Notes: generated by a model from the letters alone, not told the origin. A DNA stretch of 64,000 bases from an uncultured Thermoplasmata archaeon (GCA_964585175.1 CAZPCW010000002.1:5535-69534), one strand, 5' to 3'. Positions 14,716-64,000 are shown, counted from the first letter of the stretch. Numbers and translations: made by a program.

Positions 14716-15429
14716 CTATTTTCTCGCTCTCAATTCGTATATCGCGCCGGACTCGACTTTTCTATCTTCCGTAGAATCCATTATATCTCCCAGCTCTTTC
14801 TTCAATGATTTCTGGAGCTGATCCGACTCTATTTCGTCTATCTTTTCTTTAATCAATGTTTCGTGCTCTCTTAGCAGATCCGGAGGCCAAGGGACGGGTT
14901 CCAATAAGTTGAAAGTCTCAATATTTTGAAAATCTAAAGATTCGAGCTCTTTCTCTAGAACCTCAGGATGGAACTCTTCAAGATGACCCTCGCCGAGTAG
15001 CTCGGCGACCGCATTCTCTAATCTCCAAAGTTCGATATGTGATCGATCTAGAGGAGCCGAAGAGCTTTCCTCTTTGAATGGGTAGTAGTCAATTATTATC
15101 AAGACCCCTTTCTCTTTAAGGATCCTTTCAAATTCACGGAAAACCGAGGTTATTATGATATCTTTATTTTCAGAGAGAGCACTGACTAAAAAATTACAGA
15201 CAATATAATCAAAACTTTTGGGATTTAAAGATTTCAAATCGGATAGATCTGCTCTCAAAAATTGTGCAGTTTCTGTCTGCTCACGACACTCTTTCAAGTA
15301 TTCCTTATCGATATCGATTGAAAGGACGTCCGCGTCATTCTTTTCAAGGTATTTTGTCATACCGCAGGCGCCCGTACCCGCATCGAGAATTTTTTTACCT
15401 TCTAGGTCTATGCCTTTTAGTTTCTCCAT
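14716..15429 (-). CDS. Class I SAM-dependent methyltransferase
   Basis: 237 aa. A glycine-rich SAM motif ILDAGTGACG is followed by an acidic-loop D(I/L)D. Confidence 0.7.
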   Translation of the reverse strand: MEKLKGIDLEGKKILDAGTGACGMTKYLEKNDADVLSIDIDKEYLKECREQTETAQFLRADLSDLKSLNPKSFDYIVCNFLVSALSENKDIIITSVFREFERILKEKGVLIIIDYYPFKEESSSAPLDRSHIELWRLENAVAELLGEGHLEEFHPEVLEKELESLDFQNIETFNLLEPVPWPPDLLREHETLIKEKIDEIESDQLQKSLKKELGDIMDSTEDRKVESGAIYELRARK

Positions 15430-15574
15430 ATTTAGATATCCAACCGAGATGATTTTAATAATTTCCCCATAATTAAGCAGATATTATCTTGAATATAGCC
15501 ATTTTAACCATAACTCTTATATCTCAATCCCATTATTTGCATACAGATTAAGATTTAATTTCAAGGGGATTATC

Positions 15575-16312
15575 ATGTTAAACGCTGAAATCAAGTCAGA
15601 TGTGTTAAAAGAGTTGGTCGAGATAGTCGGAACTATTGTGGACGAAGTGAAGATCAATCTCGACGAGGACGGATTATCTTTGAAAGCTGTAGACCCCGCT
15701 CACGTAGCTATGGTAGACTTGAGCTTAGATAGCGATGGGTTCGAAAGTTTCGAGGCGGAACAGACTGAGTTGGGCATCAACCTGAATAAAGTAGAGAAAT
15801 TTCTCAAATTGTCGGGTTCCGGAGATATGATCTATCTCAGTCATGACGAAGAGGATAATAGGTTGAATATGGAAGTTAACAATATTACTCAAAAGATGCC
15901 TCTGCTCGATACCGCCGGGATGACGGATCCCAACGTTCCAAGTTTGGACCTTCCCATAAGCATGAGGATAAAAGGTGAACACCTCTTGAACGGCGTTAAA
16001 GCCTCCGAAAATATTTCCGATCATATCTCTATCACCGCAAATCCAGACGGTTTCGAGATATTTTCTGAAGAGGATGAAAACTCGGTTAAGATGTCTCTGG
16101 GTGAAGATGACCTAGAAGAATTGACGGCGAACGAAGAGGTCAAATCACTTTTCGCGCTAGATTATTTCTCGGACATGGTTAAGTGCGTTTCGAAAAATGC
16201 CATGTTGGACATAGAATTGGGTGCGGATTACCCGATCAAGATACAGTTCGGTTTCGCCGAGGGCAGCGGAAACGTGAGGTATCTTTTAGCACCGAGGATA
16301 GAAAGTAGCTAG
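15575..16312 (+). CDS. pcn: DNA polymerase sliding clamp PCNA
   Basis: 245 aa. Size, two-domain periodicity and N-terminal pattern are typical of archaeal PCNA. Confidence 0.8.
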   Translation: MLNAEIKSDVLKELVEIVGTIVDEVKINLDEDGLSLKAVDPAHVAMVDLSLDSDGFESFEAEQTELGINLNKVEKFLKLSGSGDMIYLSHDEEDNRLNMEVNNITQKMPLLDTAGMTDPNVPSLDLPISMRIKGEHLLNGVKASENISDHISITANPDGFEIFSEEDENSVKMSLGEDDLEELTANEEVKSLFALDYFSDMVKCVSKNAMLDIELGADYPIKIQFGFAEGSGNVRYLLAPRIESS

Positions 16313-40438: not shown

Positions 40439-41641
40439 TCAGTCATCCATCGCCTCTTCTAGTTTTTCACTCAGTATTGGTATGACTTCGTGCAGATCAC
40501 CGACTATTCCGAAGTCCGCAACATCGAATATATCGGCGTCCGGATCGTCGTTTATAGCTATGATGTAATCGGAATCCTTGATACCCACCTTGTGCTGTAT
40601 CGCTCCGGAAACACCAGACACTATATACAGCTTTGGCGAAATGGTCTTTCCGCTCTGACCTACCTGCTTCGATTTCGGCAACACGTCCTCTTCGACTATC
40701 GGTCTACTGCATCCAACCGTACCGTCCAGTTTCTCAGCTAGTTCTTCCAAGATCTCGAAATCTTCTCTGTTCGTCCCGACGCCTCGTCCACCGCAGACTA
40801 CGGTGTCAGCTTCTTCGACCGGTATCTCTCCGGTCTCTTCAGGTTCCATCACTTCTATCACTTCTGTTCTTATAGCTTCTTCGCCGACCTCTACCTCTTC
40901 CTCGATAAGTTCGTATTCGCTGTCGTGATCCGGCTCGAGAGGACTCATGACGTGCGGCCTTACAGTAGCCATTTGTGGTCTAGAATTAGTACAAACGATG
41001 TCGGCCATGACGTTACCTCCAAAAGCGGGCCTGATCTGCATCAGCACTTCTCTGCCTTCTACTTCCTCGATACCTAGGTCTGTACAGTCCGCCGTAAGAC
41101 CGAGTCCCATCCTGCCCGCAACAGAAGGAGCTAGATCTCTTCCTAAGTGGGTCGCTCCGTAGAGGAATATGTTAGGCTTGTATTCGGAGATCAAAGTCGT
41201 TATAGCGGTAGTATAAGCCTCAGTAGAATAATCCTCGAACACTTCGTCTTCGACGACATAGACTTTCTCTGCACCATAAGCGCTCAGTTCTTCGGGAAGT
41301 CCTTCAACATCTTCACCTATCAAGACCGCGCAGAGTTCTTCCCCCAACTCGTCGGCCAATTCTCTTCCCTTTCCGAGAAGCTGGGGGCCTGTAGGCTTCA
41401 ATTCATTGCCCTGCGACTCAGCGTACACCCAAACGCCTTCGTACTCTGAGAAGTCCTTGTCTTGACTCATATCTATGACCGGCTCGATTGCGTCGACCGG
41501 ACAGGCGGAAACGCACGCACCACAAGATATGCAGTCGCCCACTAGTTTGGCTACACCGTCTTCCATGGCCAGAACGTCGACCGGACACACTTTCAAGCAC
41601 TTTTCACAGCCTGTACAAGTTTTCTCGTCTATCTCTATCAT
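40439..41641 (-). CDS. etfA: Electron transfer flavoprotein alpha subunit with N-terminal 2×[4Fe-4S] ferredoxin domain (FixB-type)
   Basis: 400 aa. The N-terminus has CTGCEKCLKVCP and CISCGACVSACP. The C-terminus has the ETF-alpha FAD-binding pattern (IVSGVSGAIQH). Confidence 0.85.
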   Translation of the reverse strand: MIEIDEKTCTGCEKCLKVCPVDVLAMEDGVAKLVGDCISCGACVSACPVDAIEPVIDMSQDKDFSEYEGVWVYAESQGNELKPTGPQLLGKGRELADELGEELCAVLIGEDVEGLPEELSAYGAEKVYVVEDEVFEDYSTEAYTTAITTLISEYKPNIFLYGATHLGRDLAPSVAGRMGLGLTADCTDLGIEEVEGREVLMQIRPAFGGNVMADIVCTNSRPQMATVRPHVMSPLEPDHDSEYELIEEEVEVGEEAIRTEVIEVMEPEETGEIPVEEADTVVCGGRGVGTNREDFEILEELAEKLDGTVGCSRPIVEEDVLPKSKQVGQSGKTISPKLYIVSGVSGAIQHKVGIKDSDYIIAINDDPDADIFDVADFGIVGDLHEVIPILSEKLEEAMDD

Positions 41642-42438
41642 AGTATCCCCTCCTCGTCTAAGAAATCGATCAATTGTTGAACCGACTTCTCGGGTTCTTC
41701 TTCGACTTTTATGCCTTCACCTTTCGGAGGCGGAGAGTACGTGTCTATTACTACGCTTTCGGAACCGTCGAGTCCGTACTCGTCGTTCTCACCGCCAATA
41801 TCTTCAATGGCCCATTCTTCCGTGGGCTTCTTTTTCGCTTTCATTATTTCTCTTACATTCGGTATCTTAGGTTCGAATCCCGGTTTCGGCATGCAGGCGA
41901 TCAGGACAGGCAGTTCCGACCTGATCTTCACATGTCCTTCGTCGGTTTCTTTCTTACATATGATATATTCTTCATCGGTATCTAAATCATTGACTTCAGA
42001 AACATAAGTCAATTGGGGAAGTCCCTGATGTGCAGCGACCTCTGGACCGACCTGAGCAGTATTACCGTCAGACGCTTCCTGACCAGCAAAGATCAAATCA
42101 ACGTCATCTATCTGCTTCAAGGCTCTGCCGAGAGTGACCGCAGTAGCCCACGTGTCCGCTCCGGCGAACTCGCTGTCGGTGAGCAAAATAGCTCTATCCG
42201 CACCGATAGCTTTACACTTGTTCAAAGCTTCCTCCGCCTGTGGAGGTCCCATCGTCATCGCTATTATCTCGACCTCTTCGTCGACTTCTTCCTTAAGGTC
42301 AACGGCTAAATTCAAAGCGAACTCGTCGAAAGAATTGAGGGTTGAAGGGACCCCGTCTCTGATGATGGTCCCGGTCTCCTCGTCCACTTCGACTTCGGTA
42401 GTATCCGGAACCTGCTTGACCAAAACCACGAATTTCAC
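41638..42438 (-). CDS. etfB: Electron transfer flavoprotein beta subunit (FixA-type)
   Basis: 266 aa. The N-terminus MKFVVLVKQVPDT is typical of ETF-beta. It overlaps etfA by 4 nt. Confidence 0.85.
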   Translation of the reverse strand: MKFVVLVKQVPDTTEVEVDEETGTIIRDGVPSTLNSFDEFALNLAVDLKEEVDEEVEIIAMTMGPPQAEEALNKCKAIGADRAILLTDSEFAGADTWATAVTLGRALKQIDDVDLIFAGQEASDGNTAQVGPEVAAHQGLPQLTYVSEVNDLDTDEEYIICKKETDEGHVKIRSELPVLIACMPKPGFEPKIPNVREIMKAKKKPTEEWAIEDIGGENDEYGLDGSESVVIDTYSPPPKGEGIKVEEEPEKSVQQLIDFLDEEGIL

Positions 42439-42446
42439 GGGATCAC

Positions 42447-43730
42447 CTATTTGTAAGGTATGTAGTCGTCACCTAGAGTCTCTCTAGCTATGACTATCTT
42501 TTGTATGTTAGCTCCGCCCTCTGCTCCTACACAGTAGGACATCACACCTCTCCAGGCGGTCTCGAATATGTATTCGGAGCTGTAACCGGCAGCGCCCAAC
42601 CAGTGCATCGCATCGTCAGCGGTATCTTTAGCTAGATGAGGGATCTTGTACTTGATCATAGAGATCCATTTTGCGATCTCTGTAGGACTGTATGTCTGAG
42701 CTTTGCCGCTCTTTTCCTTCCAGCCTTCTTCGTCATATCGGGTGTCCTGCATCTCTGCTACTCTATTTATCATGAGATCACTCGCTTCCATCTCGGTGTA
42801 TCTTTCCACGAAGGGGAACTGTATGCCTTCGTACTTAGCAAGAGGATTACCGAAGGTTTCTCTTTCCTTGATATAATCCGCGGCTTCTTCTAGGATACGC
42901 CTGGTGACTCCCACGGCACTAGCTCCTATCATGATTCTTGCGTTATCGAAGCCTTCCATCGTGTAGTAGAAACCTTTTCCCTGCTCTCCGAGCATGTATT
43001 CTTCTGGTATCCTAACATCGTTCATCTTGAATCCAGAAGTCGAAAGCGATCCTCTTCCTGCGTCATCGTAAGGTTCCTGAGGTTCCAAGCCATCCGAGTC
43101 GATAGGAACGAAGAACGCGGTCATGTTTTTGTGGGGAGCTCCTTCTACCTGAGGGCCGGTTCTGACGTTTACCCAATATCCCCCGCCCATTCTTTTACAC
43201 TCTTCGACTCCGCTGATGAAAGTTTTCTCGCCGTTGAGCACCCACTCGTCGCCGTCTTTCTCCGCTGTAGATTCGAAACCGGCGACGTCCGAACCGCCTT
43301 TGGGTTCGGTGGTAGCGATCCCAACGAATTTATCTCCTTGAATAGCGGGTTTTACGAATTTTTCTCTCACTTCTTCATTACAGTATCTGTTGATCGTGAA
43401 TCCCCATCCCGTCTCTACCGCCATAAAACCCGCCGCGGTAGCGATACTGGGATCAATATAACCTATCTGGTCCGCTATGGCGATTTGATCTTTCCAAGAA
43501 AGCCCCATACCGCCGTGTTCTTCAGGAACGGTGCCCATGATGACTCCTAGGTCCGCTAACCCTTCCACTATATCTTCAGGGAAGGGGTGTCCTTCTCTAT
43601 TTATTTTAATCACGCGCTCTAGAGGAAATTCTCTTTCCGCCCAATCTGTAATACTCTCTTTGAATAACTTCTGCTCCTCGGTAAGTCCTCTATCATCTGA
43701 AAGATCTGTCCTAGCCATTTTTTCCACCAT
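42447..43730 (-). CDS. Acyl-CoA dehydrogenase
   Basis: 427 aa. The ACAD three-domain pattern and a C-terminal catalytic region are present. It is adjacent to etfBA. Confidence 0.8.
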   Translation of the reverse strand: MVEKMARTDLSDDRGLTEEQKLFKESITDWAEREFPLERVIKINREGHPFPEDIVEGLADLGVIMGTVPEEHGGMGLSWKDQIAIADQIGYIDPSIATAAGFMAVETGWGFTINRYCNEEVREKFVKPAIQGDKFVGIATTEPKGGSDVAGFESTAEKDGDEWVLNGEKTFISGVEECKRMGGGYWVNVRTGPQVEGAPHKNMTAFFVPIDSDGLEPQEPYDDAGRGSLSTSGFKMNDVRIPEEYMLGEQGKGFYYTMEGFDNARIMIGASAVGVTRRILEEAADYIKERETFGNPLAKYEGIQFPFVERYTEMEASDLMINRVAEMQDTRYDEEGWKEKSGKAQTYSPTEIAKWISMIKYKIPHLAKDTADDAMHWLGAAGYSSEYIFETAWRGVMSYCVGAEGGANIQKIVIARETLGDDYIPYK

Positions 43731-57488: not shown

Positions 57489-58301
57489 TTACCACGGCCT
57501 TCTGCTCTTCCTCTTTCTCTGCCTATAGAGAAGGAATACTACAAAGCTAACGGCTATAACTGCAACTATAACTCCTGCATAGAGCATAGTATTTGTCTCA
57601 CCTTCTACGTGGAATGTGCGATCCATGACCCGGTCTTGTTTATTGAAACTATCGGGATCGTTATCGGTTCCATAATCCACCCAGACTTTTAGATCATGCT
57701 CTCCTGAAGATAAACCTTCTTTAGACCACTTGAAAGTTACCTTTCTCTGTTCCCCAGGCTTCAAATCCTCTACCATGACAGTGCTCTTCTTATCGCCGTC
57801 TATGAACAATCCCAATTCCATCTTCTTGATAGTGATGTTGGTCGGATTATTTATGGGGACCGTGGTTACTTCAGGTTCCTCTACTTCGATCCTGTACTGT
57901 TTCTCCGTATATGAGACGCTTCCGTTCTTACCACAATATGCCGTTAAATTCAGATATCCTTTTCCTTCCTCGTGTACAGTAACATTCACCGTGTACACAT
58001 TAGTCGTAGAGGTTCCGATGCTCTGAGGTTCAACGGTCGCGTCCATAGTCGATTCGGTTTTAAGAGTCCAATTGTCAGCTCTCTCAGCATCTACAAGATC
58101 GTCACCGACTTGGAACACACCTTTTATCTCTACTTCGTAATTCTCGGTTTCATTGACAAATAACTTATCCGGACCGTCGACTGATATATTAATACGGCTG
58201 TCTTCTTGCGCAGCTTCAGATATCTGGAAAGCGGACATCCCGCTTCCTATCATCATCAAGATCACTATTATGGCCAAAAAGGCCGGTTTTTTCCACTTCA
58301 T
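57489..58301 (-). CDS. Membrane-anchored surface protein with Ig-like/CARDB-like domains
   Basis: Likely start MKWKKPAFLAIIV at 58301, which overlaps the AglB stop by 1 nt. An N-terminal signal/TM is followed by a β-rich ectodomain. The C-terminal TM is followed by an RKRKSRR tail. Confidence 0.65.
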   Translation of the reverse strand: MKWKKPAFLAIIVILMMIGSGMSAFQISEAAQEDSRINISVDGPDKLFVNETENYEVEIKGVFQVGDDLVDAERADNWTLKTESTMDATVEPQSIGTSTTNVYTVNVTVHEEGKGYLNLTAYCGKNGSVSYTEKQYRIEVEEPEVTTVPINNPTNITIKKMELGLFIDGDKKSTVMVEDLKPGEQRKVTFKWSKEGLSSGEHDLKVWVDYGTDNDPDSFNKQDRVMDRTFHVEGETNTMLYAGVIVAVIAVSFVVFLLYRQRKRKSRRPW

Positions 58302-61300
58302 CAGAGCCACCTCTTTTTCCTCATAACGTAAAGTGCCGCTATCGAAACTAGTAATATTATGCCAGCCCATTGCCAGTTCGACAACGTGAAGGGTTCTTCT
58401 TCTAAAGCGAGTTCATCCGTAGTAAATTCAACTTTTTCCGGATCACCAGTGAGTTCAGGTAGAGATGTCGTGAATTCTTCAGTATCAGTAACTTCCTCGT
58501 CTCCTTCAGAAACAGCCATCAACTCGACCGTGACGTCTCTTTTGGAATTCGGAGTTGTAGAGCGCAGCTTGACTTCGAACGCATTCTGTTCTTGTTTAGC
58601 GATCTCCTTAGTATCTTGAGCTAAGGTTATATTCCAACCCCAGTTCTTCAACTCTTCTTCGTTGACCACTTCCAATCTATAATTGTGGGCGCCATTCCCT
58701 TTATTTTTGACATCTACAGAATATGTGAACTCTCCTTCACCATATTCCTTAGAACGGATTCCTGATAAAAGATCGACCTTATATATCGGTTTGACGTTTA
58801 TCGGGAGCGTTTTTTCTTCTTTTTCTTCTAAATTGGGTGAATCGACCATCATTTTTATTGAATCGTCTTCACTAGCATTTTCTCCAACTTGGACGGTTAC
58901 TTTGATCTGCTTTTTCTCTGTTGGTCCCAAAGAAACGGTCTCAGGTTCAAAATCCACTTCCCATTCAGAATTCGAGACTGAGAATTCATATTCATCTTGG
59001 GTATTACCGGCGTTAGTGATCTCAGCGGTGAACTCGATAGTTTCGCCCTGCGATACCGTTTTCTCTTCTAGTTCACTTATTTTTACTTCGAAGTTTTTGA
59101 CTTTCTTCAATTCTATCGTTCTTTCTTCGTCGTGCTGTATATCCAAAGTATTAGAATACTTGAAGTTGGTAGACCCATAATCCATCTCCCTAGTTTCCTG
59201 AGCGTCTATAGAGTACCTGCCCTTCGGCAATAGAATACGGAAAGAACCGTTTTCATCTGTCTCAAATTGTCTGTTAGCGATCTCCTTCCTAATATTTAGA
59301 TCAGTCTCTACACCTTCACCGCGTAACTTCACTTCACCAGAGAAAATTATGCCTTCTTCCAAAGATATATCATGAGTGTGATCCTCGGCGGGCATCTTGA
59401 ATGTATCGAAATAGGAGTAAGTTTCGCCCATCGACTGGTGAGATATGTAGACAGTGTATTGTCCTTGTATCACCTGATCTAGATGATATTCACCTTCTTC
59501 ATCCGTCTGTACTGTAAACTCATCCTCCTCAGACTTTATACTAATCTCTACATTTTTTACCGGTGATCCTCCAAGCATTACCTTGCCTTTTAGAGTTGAA
59601 TTCAGTACATATCTTTCCAATTCTAGCGGCATTGATATCGGCGTGTCTCGCTCTTCAGAAAGATGATATCGGACATCTCTTTCTACTCCGTTGATCTCTT
59701 CCTCGGTAACATAGTCGACCTTAATCCTGTAATTTCCAGCGGTCACGTTGATATTCAACTCTCCGTCCGGCCCACTTAAAGTTCGAAGGGTGTAATCGGT
59801 ATCTAGGTTTTCAAAGGAAACTGGCATTCCCTGTTGATTTAAGCCTGTAATGTCAGCATTCACTGAATAGGTATCCTCTAGCGAAAGATCCATGGATGTG
59901 GACATATTTTCTTTCACAGCCAATCTCTTCTGCACGGCACGAGTTCCTTCTGGGTTAACAGCCCGTACCGAATAAGTTCCTGGTATGAGATAAGTTGAGA
60001 AAGTTCCATCAGCCGAAATAGTTCTATTTTCAGGACCCTGGAAATAAATATCAGCTTCAGAGGACAATTCACCTTTCACTTTCGTCTTATATATTGCCCT
60101 GAGATCTTTAGTCACGCCTTGTTCTCCGGGTTCGATCGACAATGAGTCGGAGACTTCATACCTTATTTCGTCCTCCATCAAGGAATAGTTACTGACGATT
60201 TCGTATTTTCCAGGCTGAAGTTCAACACGGTAACTACCGTCGGCCGCTTCTATCTCTTTACTAACGGCTCCATCGGCCAAAGGTTTGAATTCCAGTTTTA
60301 GTGTTTCTACTAATTCCCTATCGAAATCGATATTTCCTTCAACAGTGATATTTTTAGCATCTAGGTGAATATCCATATCTTTTTCTTGGTCGAGTTGAGA
60401 AGGATTTATAGTCAAATAACGGTCATGATATCCTTCTTTTTTGACTGTGAGAGTGCAGTCCTTTTCAGGAAGATATAAACTATAATTTCCATCTACATTT
60501 GTAGCGGTACTGAACTCATGTCCACCACAGCTAATTTGGATATCCGTGTAGAGTCCTTCACCATCTCTATCAGAGTTGAACAGGTTTCTTTTGACTTTGC
60601 CTTGAACCTTGTACCCCTTCGATGGATCAAGATTTAGTTCTACATCCCTATTCAAATTGATCTGCTCTGAGAAGTAAAGATCCTCGCCTTGTCCTGGGAA
60701 GGTTGATTCTTTCCAACCGTAAACGTCGTATTGGCCTCCCGGTAGATGGGTCTTAAATCTTCCTTCTGAATTAGTTGTGATATAATGCTCCCCACCATTT
60801 TTACCTTTAACGAATATTTCGGCTTTTTCAACGCTAGAACCATCATAAATCACTTCACCGGTCAATTTGTAAGCCTGGTCAAACTTCCCAGTGTATTCTG
60901 TATCTGAAGTTAACAAGATGTCGTCCAAGGTCGCGTAAACCTCTTCCCCCTCCCTGTTAATACCATAGATCTGGTATTTTCCTTCTGGCAATTTTATATC
61001 AAATTCACCATTTTCACCTGTCTTTACCATCCTGTCATAATTCTTAGCCAGTATCGAAAGTCTTTGATTAGAGATCTCTTTTCCTTCCTTTGTTACTTCT
61101 CCCTTCAATCGGTGAGCTTTAACTATCTCGATATCTTTATTGACGCTTCCAGTCTCGTTTATCTCAAGATCCGAAGGCCCATATCGAAGGGTGTATCCGT
61201 CGTCATCGATATTTAAGGTGTATTCGCCGAACGAGAGATCTGAAAATTCATACTCATCTGTCTCTCCTATTCTGATTTTCTCATCTTCCTCTTTTCCTTC

Positions 61301-64000
61301 TAAGGAGAGCTTGAATTCCTCTTTCTCTAGCCCCTCTCCATAAGTTATATTACCTCTTATCTTACCGACTGATACGGGTAGGTCCTTAGAAGATTGTTCT
61401 CCGGGTTTCACGACTTGATTTTTCAAATCGGCGCTTCCTGGAATAGAGCTCTCGATAGAATAATTTCCAGGAGCAATCTTCGAAAATTCGTAAGTACCAT
61501 TTTCGATGGACGATGTATACTCGATGTCGGACTTTTTACTTTCTATGACTACCTCGCCAGTACCAGAATAAAGAGTGTCGTTTGATTTATCATATTCCCC
61601 GTTATCGGCTCGATCTAAGAATACTTTTCCCGACATCTGACCTAATTCGACTTCAAAATCGTTCAGCAGTTTATAATCCATTCGACCATCTCCGTCTCTA
61701 TCAACGGGCTTTCTCAACGCTTGTTCCTTGGTGATGTTATACTGTTCATTGTCGAGTACGATTTCTTCCCTTCCGACCAATTTCTGTTGATTGCCCCCTG
61801 TTGAAACCAATACTGTCATGTTACCTTCAGGAAGAACAACTCTATAGTTACCTCCTTCATCTGTAATCGTTGAGTCATGGCGCGTTCCACGCCCGTCAGT
61901 AGTATCGACAACAGTAACCCTAGCATTCGGTATTGGCTCACCAGTTTCCGTTTTCACTTGTCCTTTCAAGACAGCCCCGTCGTAATATTTCAAGAATACG
62001 ACTCCTTGTCGCATATAGCTTCGAGCCGAGTCATCGACCGTAACGTTTTCATTGTCTTTTTGTTCAACACCCTTGTCATAATAATTGATCGCCTCCCTTG
62101 ACCCAGTGTGGTTTCTCACTTCATCTCGAGGATATGGATAATAGTAGGCTGTTTTATACACATCTTTGAAATGTGTGAGATTCCAACTAGGCATCGGTTT
62201 AAGTGATTGTCTCGTTCTTCTCCCGGATAAGCCAGGGATTCCTTTTTCTCCCCGGCCAACTTCATGCTTGCTATATCCTGCAAATGTCCTGTATAGAGCG
62301 GAGTTGAAAAACATCGATTTATATTTTATCTTCTGATCAACGATCCTAGCATCTTCTGGAACATTATCGGGGTCGTCATAACTCTGTCCTGCAGAATCGA
62401 TGAATTCGTAAGTGAAAAAGTCTTCCGGAACTCTGCCGCGACCGAAATCTTTCATACGATGTCCTGAAAGGAAAGCCGGGGCATGGAAGATACCCGTCCG
62501 TTGAGCTGATGTCGGGAACAGCCTTGAATCGACCGCTAAATATCCCATACGGTTTTCAAGTCTATCATATCCAGAATTATAACTTACATCTCTATAAAGT
62601 GAAGAAAGGGTCTCCAGGTCCTCTTCAGATAGAGTACCCATGACCATCGCCCACATTACATTTTTATTACCGATATCGTCAGCTCTGGGATGATATTTAT
62701 CGGGATTCGATAGGACTTCGTTTTTATATTCGCCTGAATTCTGGTAAATATCTTCTAGTTTTTGGGTTTTCTCTTTCCCTAAATGATCCACTAGTATGGC
62801 TTGAACTTTGCCTTCAAATTGACCCTCTTCATTATAGGGCAACTGCAACTGTCTACCTATCATCAAACCAATTATCTCTGATTCGTTTTGCGCCATCAGA
62901 ACATTACCAGTGAATCTATAACCGTGCTGAAAGTTGTCAGCAACCGTAGGATGGTCTCCTCTGTTCATCGCCTGAAATCCATAGTCCCACCAGCTCACAA
63001 ATGCAGGCCTTTCTTTAGGCGGCAGTTGATTATCCTGTTGGCTGAACCAATCCCAAGCCGCTGGCCAATAATCGGTTGGCCTGTCTAGACTAGGTCCGAA
63101 AGCTCCAAGGTAATGGAGTTCTTGTTCAGGATTATGATCTTTAGCTTTCAAAGGTTCAGGTAGAGTATCGTAGATCTGTTCATTATACTTTGACTTCTCC
63201 TGATATGGGGTGGCCGAATCGATAACGTACATTGCGTTCGGAGTGAGGATCAGAAACACGACGAACAATGTGACCAAAACATGTTTGATTTTCACACCTT
63301 CTCGTATTCCCCTTATAACGTTGCCTCTGTGGCTTGTAAAACTCCTTGCGAACTCTTCGAATTTCGCTTTATCGAAAATCAAAGCCACTACCCATCCAGA
63401 AGTCAGGGCAAACGCCGGTGATGCATTATATATGAACCTGGTAGCCGTAGTCGCCATATAAATCGCAAATACCATCCAAACTAACACAAACAAGAATGAA
63501 CGACGCCAGGTTTTCTTCAAGTGCCAACCGGCCAATGGTAGTGCTATAAAGGATAGGAAAAATGTTGTGATTCCCGTAGCTAGAACTAAACGACTGAATG
63601 AAGGTGCTTGAGCCTCAGCGATAGTCGAATACAATTTATTCTGGATGAAATACTGAGAAGCGGCCTGCGTGATCACATCAGGGCCTAGAGTGAAAAAGAG
63701 TACGCCTGCGATCGCGAGTATGGAAAAAGTCAACACCCATGGAAGGTCTCTAGTGACTGAGAAATATACTCCAAGACCGAAGGATCCCAAGAATATAACA
63801 AAGGGGATCTGGAAATATCTACCTAGCGGCCATTGGATCAATGTAGTGAATTTTTCTAATGCTCCGGCTGGCGTTTTTCCATACCAAGGTAAAGCCACCA
63901 AGAATACGAGCATTATCATTACAAATATAGATATAGTGATCCCGAGGGAATCTTCACCTCTAAATTTATCTATAACTAACTGAACCAAAAAGTACACTAA
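58301..64000 (-). CDS. aglB: AglB/STT3 oligosaccharyltransferase fused to ~1,200-aa C-terminal array of CarboxypepD_reg-like domains; N-terminus truncated by window edge
   Basis: More than 1,898 aa. Multi-TM helices precede the WWDYG catalytic motif (ERPAFVSWWDYGFQA). About 10 tandemly repeated β-sandwich units of ~90 aa follow (G-x-V…NG-x-Y-x…L/PEG-x-Y pattern). The protein ends with a C-terminal TM plus RKKRWL. Only about 7 TMs precede WWDYG, so the true start lies beyond 64000. Confidence 0.8.
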   Translation of the reverse strand, partial: LVYFLVQLVIDKFRGEDSLGITISIFVMIMLVFLVALPWYGKTPAGALEKFTTLIQWPLGRYFQIPFVIFLGSFGLGVYFSVTRDLPWVLTFSILAIAGVLFFTLGPDVITQAASQYFIQNKLYSTIAEAQAPSFSRLVLATGITTFFLSFIALPLAGWHLKKTWRRSFLFVLVWMVFAIYMATTATRFIYNASPAFALTSGWVVALIFDKAKFEEFARSFTSHRGNVIRGIREGVKIKHVLVTLFVVFLILTPNAMYVIDSATPYQEKSKYNEQIYDTLPEPLKAKDHNPEQELHYLGAFGPSLDRPTDYWPAAWDWFSQQDNQLPPKERPAFVSWWDYGFQAMNRGDHPTVADNFQHGYRFTGNVLMAQNESEIIGLMIGRQLQLPYNEEGQFEGKVQAILVDHLGKEKTQKLEDIYQNSGEYKNEVLSNPDKYHPRADDIGNKNVMWAMVMGTLSEEDLETLSSLYRDVSYNSGYDRLENRMGYLAVDSRLFPTSAQRTGIFHAPAFLSGHRMKDFGRGRVPEDFFTYEFIDSAGQSYDDPDNVPEDARIVDQKIKYKSMFFNSALYRTFAGYSKHEVGRGEKGIPGLSGRRTRQSLKPMPSWNLTHFKDVYKTAYYYPYPRDEVRNHTGSREAINYYDKGVEQKDNENVTVDDSARSYMRQGVVFLKYYDGAVLKGQVKTETGEPIPNARVTVVDTTDGRGTRHDSTITDEGGNYRVVLPEGNMTVLVSTGGNQQKLVGREEIVLDNEQYNITKEQALRKPVDRDGDGRMDYKLLNDFEVELGQMSGKVFLDRADNGEYDKSNDTLYSGTGEVVIESKKSDIEYTSSIENGTYEFSKIAPGNYSIESSIPGSADLKNQVVKPGEQSSKDLPVSVGKIRGNITYGEGLEKEEFKLSLEGKEEDEKIRIGETDEYEFSDLSFGEYTLNIDDDGYTLRYGPSDLEINETGSVNKDIEIVKAHRLKGEVTKEGKEISNQRLSILAKNYDRMVKTGENGEFDIKLPEGKYQIYGINREGEEVYATLDDILLTSDTEYTGKFDQAYKLTGEVIYDGSSVEKAEIFVKGKNGGEHYITTNSEGRFKTHLPGGQYDVYGWKESTFPGQGEDLYFSEQINLNRDVELNLDPSKGYKVQGKVKRNLFNSDRDGEGLYTDIQISCGGHEFSTATNVDGNYSLYLPEKDCTLTVKKEGYHDRYLTINPSQLDQEKDMDIHLDAKNITVEGNIDFDRELVETLKLEFKPLADGAVSKEIEAADGSYRVELQPGKYEIVSNYSLMEDEIRYEVSDSLSIEPGEQGVTKDLRAIYKTKVKGELSSEADIYFQGPENRTISADGTFSTYLIPGTYSVRAVNPEGTRAVQKRLAVKENMSTSMDLSLEDTYSVNADITGLNQQGMPVSFENLDTDYTLRTLSGPDGELNINVTAGNYRIKVDYVTEEEINGVERDVRYHLSEERDTPISMPLELERYVLNSTLKGKVMLGGSPVKNVEISIKSEEDEFTVQTDEEGEYHLDQVIQGQYTVYISHQSMGETYSYFDTFKMPAEDHTHDISLEEGIIFSGEVKLRGEGVETDLNIRKEIANRQFETDENGSFRILLPKGRYSIDAQETREMDYGSTNFKYSNTLDIQHDEERTIELKKVKNFEVKISELEEKTVSQGETIEFTAEITNAGNTQDEYEFSVSNSEWEVDFEPETVSLGPTEKKQIKVTVQVGENASEDDSIKMMVDSPNLEEKEEKTLPINVKPIYKVDLLSGIRSKEYGEGEFTYSVDVKNKGNGAHNYRLEVVNEEELKNWGWNITLAQDTKEIAKQEQNAFEVKLRSTTPNSKRDVTVELMAVSEGDEEVTDTEEFTTSLPELTGDPEKVEFTTDELALEEEPFTLSNWQWAGIILLVSIAALYVMRKKRWL

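Follow-up and report, generated by a model that had tools for sequence, protein, structure and literature searches.

The window analysed here, a 64,000-nucleotide (nt) stretch of DNA from an uncultured Thermoplasmata archaeon (GCA_964585175.1 CAZPCW010000002.1:5535-69534), contains at its far end, on the minus strand, a giant gene for AglB, the archaeal oligosaccharyltransferase (OST) of the STT3 type, followed by a small partner gene (Table 1). Coordinates refer to the window, and residue numbers count from the first codon of the part of the AglB open reading frame (ORF) that lies within it. Translation of the minus strand of 58301-64000 gives a single open frame comprising 1,899 sense codons and a stop codon at 58301-58303, with no start codon within the window and with even GC content and skews along its length. 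The gene runs off the window edge, as a first-pass annotation made from the sequence alone had stated: in an orthologue that is 75% identical and 2,168 amino acids (aa) long (locus L001), the catalytic WWDYG motif is positioned 266 residues further in, indicating that ~266 N-terminal residues are missing here, and the complete AglB would be one polypeptide of about 2,165 residues.

By sequence and by predicted structure, the protein comprises an AglB/STT3 OST of family GT66 (residues 1-670); a stalk of ~11 diverged CarboxypepD_reg-like and 2 CARDB/FixG_C-like domains, ~13 in total (residues 671-1865); and a C-terminal transmembrane helix with a basic tail. The AglB gene is flanked by aminoacyl-tRNA synthetase genes; its neighbours in the scanned parts of the window and in L001 are housekeeping and sugar-catabolism genes, with no glycosylation gene cluster and no sortase gene among them. 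Judged by this housekeeping context, the giant AglB is best read as the putative housekeeping OST of the lineage.

Table 1. Positions of the giant AglB gene, its parts, and the partner gene in the 64,000-nt window.
Feature	Position	Strand	Basis
Giant AglB ORF, 5′ end beyond the window edge	58301..64000	-	1,899 codons and stop; ~266 codons missing
STT3 multi-transmembrane core, C-terminal part (residues 1-265; last transmembrane helix 240-260)	63206..64000	-	TIGR04154, 3WAJ profile match, model helices, Foldseek match to 3WAK
TIXE motif of external loop 5 (EL5), TIAEAQ	63608..63625	-	Aligned to TIAE of AfAglB-L; T/E/A/P invariant in family
External catalytic globular domain with WWDYG and large helical insertion (residues 266-670)	61991..63205	-	Alignment, profile, model, Foldseek
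WWDYG catalytic motif (residues 337-341)	62978..62992	-	Invariant in family
VDSRLFP, family-conserved segment at the expected site of a DK-type motif; no canonical DxxK	62513..62533	-	Family alignment
Stalk domain D1 (CarboxypepD_reg), high-confidence prediction beside catalytic domain	61721..61990	-	Pfam, iterative profile, alignment, model, Foldseek
DRDGDGRMD loop between D1 and D2	61676..61702	-	Look of a calcium-binding loop, by sequence
Stalk domains D2-D11, diverged CarboxypepD_reg/SdrD_B-like beta-sandwiches	59126..61657	-	Pfam, iterative profile, model, Foldseek
Stalk domains D12-D13, CARDB/FixG_C/NPCBM_assoc-like immunoglobulin (Ig) domains	58496..59125	-	Pfam/NCBIfam, model; choice-of-anchor T match under cutoff
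C-terminal transmembrane helix WAGIILLVSIAALYVM and basic tail RKKRWL	58304..58369	-	Translation, orthologue tails
Partner gene, 270 aa: signal peptide, CARDB domain, C-terminal transmembrane helix and basic tail	57489..58301	-	ATG overlaps the AglB TGA (TGATG)

The enzyme part

The window holds only the C-terminal half of the AglB transmembrane domain. The first-pass assignment to AglB/STT3, made from WWDYG and a multi-transmembrane core, is borne out by family-model, profile, and structure comparisons. Specifically, the NCBIfam model TIGR04154 (archaeal STT3; archaeosortase-A-associated OST) matches with an E value of 2.5e-28 over profile positions 220-575 and misses its subfamily cutoff (98.9 bits against 450); the AglB here is related to the TIGR04154 group but belongs to a different AglB subfamily. 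A family profile built from 19 orthologues matches Archaeoglobus fulgidus AglB-L (AfAglB-L; 3WAJ, also 5GMY) at ~2e-25 over residues 4-470; the profile was needed to reach 3WAJ, because a search of solved structures with the single sequence matched only short C-terminal domains of AfAglB-S. The AlphaFold model of residues 1-760 has a mean predicted local distance difference test (pLDDT) score of 85.6 and a predicted TM-score (pTM) of 0.84, and Foldseek with this model returns 3WAK as the top match (7e-12), followed by 7E9S and then human STT3A, yeast Stt3, and PglB.

The alignment with AfAglB-L pairs GGSDSxYH (GGxDxxYH) with GGNDPWYY, TVAEAQAP with TIAE, and WWDYG with WWDYG. In particular, STIAEAQAP is located at residues 125-133, with TIAE at 126-129 and with T, E, A, and P invariant in the family, while WWDYG is invariant across 39 sequences. 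The catalytic, DxD-type Asp motif of the first external loop (EL1) lies outside the window; it reads GGGADSYYNAR in L001 and GGSDSFYH in the family consensus. By analogy, the enzyme would transfer a glycan from a lipid carrier to the Asn of N-x-S/T sequons in secreted proteins, as in any AglB.

The stalk and the C-terminal anchor

Pfam searches place beta-sandwich domains in the stalk: CarboxypepD_reg (PF13620) is recognised in 8 separate stretches, with an E value of 3e-58 and a score of 194.5 bits (cutoff 32.3); CarbopepD_reg_2 matches at 1.2e-29; further matches are to SdrD_B and several more beta-sandwich models; and FixG_C/CARDB/NPCBM_assoc-like Ig domains are located toward the AglB C-terminus. 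With an iterative profile, 10 copies of the repeat are recognised, and the AlphaFold model of residues 671-1870 (pLDDT 72.7, pTM 0.38) is all-beta with ~92 strands, which gives the estimate of ~13 sandwich domains. The first-pass description of about 10 repeats of a ~90-aa beta-sandwich module thus holds for the array itself, on all of these lines of evidence, and is revised in number to ~11 plus 2. No tandem repeat is present at the DNA level across the stalk, and pairwise matches between stalk domains are short and mostly ~20-47% identical, indicating that the repeats are old.

The first stalk domain, D1, equals the catalytic domain in degree of conservation, and the model places it with high confidence next to that domain. 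D1 may be a counterpart of the peripheral units P1 and P2 that known long AglBs carry (PMC3703281). The DRDGDGRMD segment that follows D1 looks, from its sequence, like a calcium-binding loop; its D...G..D pattern is kept in relatives, and SdrD_B-type matches adjoin it. Pfam gives no significant match to a lectin or carbohydrate-binding family in AglB or in the partner.

The first-pass annotation had the ORF ending in a transmembrane helix and RKKRWL, and the translation agrees, with the helix WAGIILLVSIAALYVM directly preceding that tail. Nearly all orthologues end in the same manner, with a transmembrane helix and then a Trp/Arg-rich tail, commonly YRWWRTRRWxRR. Dozens of species (loci L010-L080) share an almost unchanged cytoplasmic tail, YRWWRTRRW(T/V)RR, despite the poorly conserved stalk that precedes it, which suggests that the tail makes a specific cytoplasmic or lipid interaction.

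Conservation across Thermoplasmata

A scan of one genome per species gave 554 relatives, of which the best 80 loci were retained for counts; by record label, all but one of these are Thermoplasmata or related archaea, and they include metagenome-assembled genomes (MAGs) labelled Methanomassiliicoccales, Aciduliprofundum, and Ca. Lutacidiplasma. At 63 of the 80 loci, AglB is one intact ORF of 2,100-2,260 aa that extends ~1,600 residues past WWDYG; the remaining loci are mostly cut by a contig end or interrupted by an internal frameshift. In the full-length alignment, the stalk is collinear, with gaps of 0-8% per domain, and the fusion junction is a conserved in-frame motif (...YYDGA..G.V....G.P...) in 19 of 19 aligned orthologues. 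Mean identity to the query is 0.11-0.24 for D2-D13, as compared to ~0.36 for the catalytic part.

With the stalk as query, an exhaustive HMMER search of a library of 1.84 billion protein representatives yields 85 clusters at E<=1e-30; in most of the full-length matches, the stalk aligns as a single collinear stretch beginning at ~residue 930-1160, the proteins being 2,100-2,400 aa long. A word-index search with the stalk alone finds one relative only; the stalk diverges fast, which makes such a search weak and the exhaustive one necessary. Two protein searches return no match longer than ~1.75 times the query length (1,170 and 1,719 aa), a ceiling that we read as a property of the search and not as biology, since the loci and the HMMER matches give proteins of 2,100-2,400 aa. 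The aligned sequences indicate that the domain number, domain order, and total length of the giant AglB are kept across the class Thermoplasmata, whether the species come from soils, sediments, rumen, or vents.

The partner gene and the sequons

The start codon of the partner gene overlaps the AglB stop codon, and the two genes are co-transcribed and, through this TGATG overlap, probably translationally coupled. Pfam gives CARDB alone for the partner (4.5e-9), and homologues of the partner lie directly downstream of AglB at 42 of the 80 loci. The partner could be an undescribed AglB subunit and is a candidate for that role. The first-pass annotation had missed this conserved, coupled gene, while the fusion it described, of AglB with a CarboxypepD_reg array and a transmembrane helix with basic tail, is confirmed by Pfam, profile, and model. 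We also considered whether the partner is a paralogue of the C-terminal module of AglB; this was not established, with hhalign aligning 37 columns only, at 90% probability. At another locus (L081), a 107-aa thioredoxin with a weak Pfam match to OST3_OST6 is encoded directly after the CARDB partner gene (15312-15635, plus strand). OST3 and OST6 are thioredoxin-like subunits of the eukaryotic OST.

The stalk in the window contains 17 sequons, as compared to 9.2 expected from shuffling (p ~0.007). In homologues, sequon density per 100 aa is 3.1 in the stalk and 0.83 in the catalytic part.

Comparison with known systems

The archaeal AglBs studied so far represent a few lineages, and the enzyme is regarded as consisting of one subunit of ~600-1,000 aa. 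The giant AglB resembles AfAglB-L (3WAJ/3WAK/7E9S) and Pyrococcus AglB-L in its STT3 multi-transmembrane core, its TIXE and WWDYG motifs and, through L001, its EL1 Asp motif, and it resembles AfAglB-L and the long AglBs in having an external catalytic domain and beta-rich peripheral units after the central core. It differs from AfAglB-L in its size (~2,165 aa as compared to 868 aa), in its 13 beta-sandwich domains in place of 1-2 peripheral units, in its second membrane anchor, in its coupled partner gene, in a large helical insertion after WWDYG, and in having no canonical DK motif. The first-pass view that this AglB is unusual therefore stands in relation to the studied AglBs, those of A. 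fulgidus being 591-868 aa (PMC3703281), and falls within Thermoplasmata, where this build is the norm. The 2,200-aa form is in use throughout the class, including Methanomassiliicoccales MAGs (one from rumen), Aciduliprofundum MAGs from vents, and many soil lineages.

Shorter AglBs of Thermoplasmatota (1,100-1,170 aa, such as P0078 and P0092; 1,386 aa, P0339; 1,425 aa, P0329, from Acidiplasma sp.) have the same fusion of STT3 to CarboxypepD_reg, with homologous first stalk domains and with 24-31% identity to the window protein in the catalytic region. They have few stalk domains, ~2-5 as estimated by length. The second anchor is absent in the 1,100-1,170-aa and 1,386-aa forms, while the 1,425-aa Acidiplasma form ends in a transmembrane helix and a basic tail. 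Judged by these sequences, stalk length is graded across the phylum (1,100-1,170, 1,386, 1,425, and 2,200 aa), and the series of ~1,100, 1,390, 1,425, and 2,200 aa amounts to a ready-made set of natural deletion variants, one of which, the Acidiplasma form, comes from a cultured genus.

A precedent for a spacer made of such domains is NOMO (nodal modulator), a subunit of the eukaryotic BOS complex whose build resembles that of the stalk: a long rod of Ig-like "beads on a string" on the exoplasmic face of its membrane. The protein resides in the endoplasmic reticulum and has a transmembrane and a cytosolic segment, and insertions into it support a role in setting membrane-to-membrane distance (PMC8327139). 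In Pfam searches of the stalk, NOMO_5th scores 42.7 bits, with no single stretch passing, and NOMO1-like_9th matches at 3e-4; BaTIE is a top structural match of both NOMO and the AglB stalk. NOMO is, in contrast, a separate eukaryotic protein without a catalytic domain and is not known to be linked in function to an OST fusion, whereas the AglB stalk is fused to its enzyme, and the cross-matches are to single domains, with no full collinear match of the kind expected of orthologues. The likeness appears to be one of shared fold and build, not of orthology.

In the eukaryotic OST, STT3 is surrounded by accessory subunits, ribophorin I/II and OST48/Wbp1. These type-I membrane proteins pack against it with lumenal beta-sandwich domains and single transmembrane helices. 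The AglB partner has the same topology (signal peptide, ectodomain, transmembrane helix, and basic tail) as these accessory subunits; the comparison is by topology alone, with no sequence similarity to them detected for the partner by Pfam. The stalk also resembles Gram-positive stalk proteins (BaTIE, SdrD B repeats, and Cna-B pilins) in its tandem beta-sandwich domains of similar fold. In contrast to the AglB stalk, which has both ends in the membrane and an enzyme at one of them, those proteins are anchored by sortase at one end and carry ligand-binding tips.

In public annotation, homologues are named "STT3 domain-containing" or "carboxypeptidase regulatory-like domain-containing", and a full-text literature search found no paper on an AglB-CarboxypepD_reg fusion or on a giant Thermoplasmata AglB. 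The identity of the enzyme is ordinary; the giant, double-anchored build and the partner gene are apparently undescribed.

Proposed role of the stalk and alternatives

Since the C-terminal domain of STT3 faces outward, residues 266-1865 would all be extracellular. The last helix would then return the chain to the membrane, so that the stalk would form a closed arch tied at both ends and not a free fibre. The sequon-rich arch would probably be one of the substrates of its own AglB, and the C-terminal helix and the helix of the partner may pack on the membrane domain of the enzyme. Drawing on sequence, predicted structure, and analogy, we propose, with a probability of roughly one half, that the giant AglB carries this double-anchored, glycosylated, fixed-length arch as a surface scaffold or spacer, in organisms that mostly lack an S-layer; the S-layer is absent in the relatives M. 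alvi and Cuniculiplasma. A structural role is favoured by the fixed domain number combined with drifting sequence, the double anchoring, the sequon enrichment, and the housekeeping neighbourhood. From the lengths of BaTIE, whose four Ig domains span 19 nm, and of NOMO1, a rod of ~27 nm (PMC8327139), we estimate a contour length of ~30-60 nm and a height of at most ~15-30 nm. If the stalk is such a glycosylated scaffold or spacer, it would help explain the protective surface of Thermoplasmata that have no S-layer. The first-pass annotation had likened the stalk to an adhesin or S-layer protein and suggested that the fusion could tether the OST to the cell envelope; such a role is hypothetical.

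Several observations weigh against this proposal. In the enzyme, evidence for the first catalytic Asp motif comes only from the family alignment and from the orthologue in L001, because the window edge cuts the gene, and a canonical DK motif is not recognisable: DxxKxxx(M/I) is absent from the AglB sequence, and the alignment and the model place the nearly invariant, family-specific VDSRLFPxS after a strand, where a DK motif is expected. By the published definition of the DK motif, variant forms are unassignable without a structure (PMC3703281). For the stalk, the PDB matches from Foldseek are confined to generic multi-Ig proteins (HYDIN, BaTIE, alpha-2-macroglobulin MG domains, and pilins) with TM-scores of ~0.1, and the inter-domain geometry of the model is unreliable (pTM 0.38), so that the shape and height of the arch are estimates. 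At the C-terminus, related AglBs of 1,100-1,390 aa carry stalk domains without a second anchor, indicating that double anchoring is not required for every fused form, and the C-terminal helix, instead of anchoring the protein permanently, could serve as a sorting signal that is processed.

A tentative alternative, which we consider clearly less probable than a scaffold or spacer, is that the stalk and the CARDB partner are accessories of the enzyme that retain nascent substrates or glycans close to the active site or choose among them, a single chain thus doing the job of the lumenal beta-sandwich subunits of the eukaryotic OST or of NOMO at the translocon. D1, with its conservation and its position beside the catalytic domain, fits this alternative, as do the P1 and P2 units already known in long AglBs and the Pfam cross-matches to NOMO and EMC7 beta-sandwich models; the shorter Thermoplasmatota AglBs, with 2-5 such domains and no anchor, suggest that an enzyme-linked role came first, and the conservation and coupling of the partner gene hint at an OST of several subunits. 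The low conservation of D2-D13, however, is weak ground for specific binding surfaces, the Pfam searches give no significant lectin or carbohydrate-binding family, and, for reaching an active site that lies at the surface of the membrane, 13 domains are far more than necessary. Should the stalk and the partner act as enzyme accessories, the multi-subunit OST of eukaryotes would have a counterpart in prokaryotes. More speculative still, and in our judgement rather improbable, is a combination in which AglB joins the CARDB partner in a prokaryotic OST holo-complex of several components, with the self-glycosylated 13-domain arch as the main envelope scaffold, or glycocalyx "ruler". In that case, the glycosylation enzyme and a major surface glycoprotein would be one molecule in Thermoplasmata that have neither wall nor S-layer.

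It is unlikely that the stalk is an adhesin for particles, hosts, or neighbouring cells that AglB merely carries. Tandem Ig-like arrays of the CarboxypepD_reg/SdrD_B/Cna-B kind are typical of surface adhesins, and the Foldseek matches include BaTIE, streptococcal pilins, and SdrD, but the stalk has both ends in the membrane and no distinct tip domain, its gene context is housekeeping, and neither the number nor the order of its domains varies between species. Adhesins, in contrast, usually differ in how many repeats they have, and their repeats are recent duplicates.

Still harder to sustain is the proposal that the C-terminal helix and basic tail are a sorting signal of the archaeosortase/exosortase type, which would be cleaved to leave the stalk end lipid-modified or released. 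The layout is tripartite in the manner of such signals (a Pro-rich motif, a transmembrane helix, and an Arg-rich tail), the strikingly conserved YRWWRTRRWxRR of most orthologues is accompanied by a similar layout in the partner, and the tail in the window weakly matches LPXTG_anchor (16.7 bits) and Loki-CTERM (15.7 bits against a cutoff of 19.9). These matches are, however, marginal and driven by composition; curated sorting models (PGF-CTERM, LPXTG, Loki-CTERM, and similar) match neither the one orthologue tail nor the one partner tail that were tested; the scanned window parts and L001 contain no sortase gene; and the enzyme falls far short of the archaeosortase-A-associated cutoff of TIGR04154 (98.9 against 450).

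Finally, an assembly or frameshift artefact that wrongly joined the genes of AglB and a surface protein, a possibility raised in the first-pass annotation, is effectively refuted: a few related assemblies are split (L082, 871 + 1,332 aa; L081, 846 + 1,031 + 201 + 96 aa) and some "stalk-only" proteins occur in protein libraries (P0123, P0134, P0159, P0170, and others), but 63 of 80 independent species genomes have the ORF intact, the conserved junction motif stays in frame, the split points lie at varying positions within the catalytic ectodomain, the pieces downstream of them carry no signal peptide, and the split loci retain the total length and the same downstream partner gene. In the "stalk-only" proteins, likewise, the first residues belong to the conserved catalytic ectodomain, and a signal peptide is lacking. 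We therefore read the split and "stalk-only" forms as broken genes and reject separate stalk genes, so that the apparent cases of homologues encoded as two separate genes, which the first-pass annotation had named as evidence against a fusion, do not bear that meaning.

Host and other observations in the window

The proteome encoded in the window is strongly acidic, with a median isoelectric point of 4.76 and with 16-26% Asp+Glu in the 21 ORFs sampled, which suggests that the host is a salt-adapted Thermoplasmata lineage. The stalks of homologues, many of them from soil MAGs, contain only ~4% acidic and ~3% basic residues.

The segment 43848-49898 encodes a GH57 glycosidase, a galactokinase, a galactose-1-phosphate uridylyltransferase, a GH1 beta-glycosidase, and a transporter of the major facilitator superfamily (MFS), a sugar-utilisation cluster that points to a sugar-using heterotroph. 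The minus strand of 40439-43730 carries, in a row, a fusion of electron-transfer flavoprotein (ETF) alpha with ferredoxin, an ORF that has, by eye only, the look of ETF beta, and an acyl-CoA dehydrogenase; together they look like an electron-transfer module. In L001, the plus strand of 51-1238 encodes a fragment of the large subunit of DNA polymerase II (DP2) with a LAGLIDADG_3 match, which may mark an intein.

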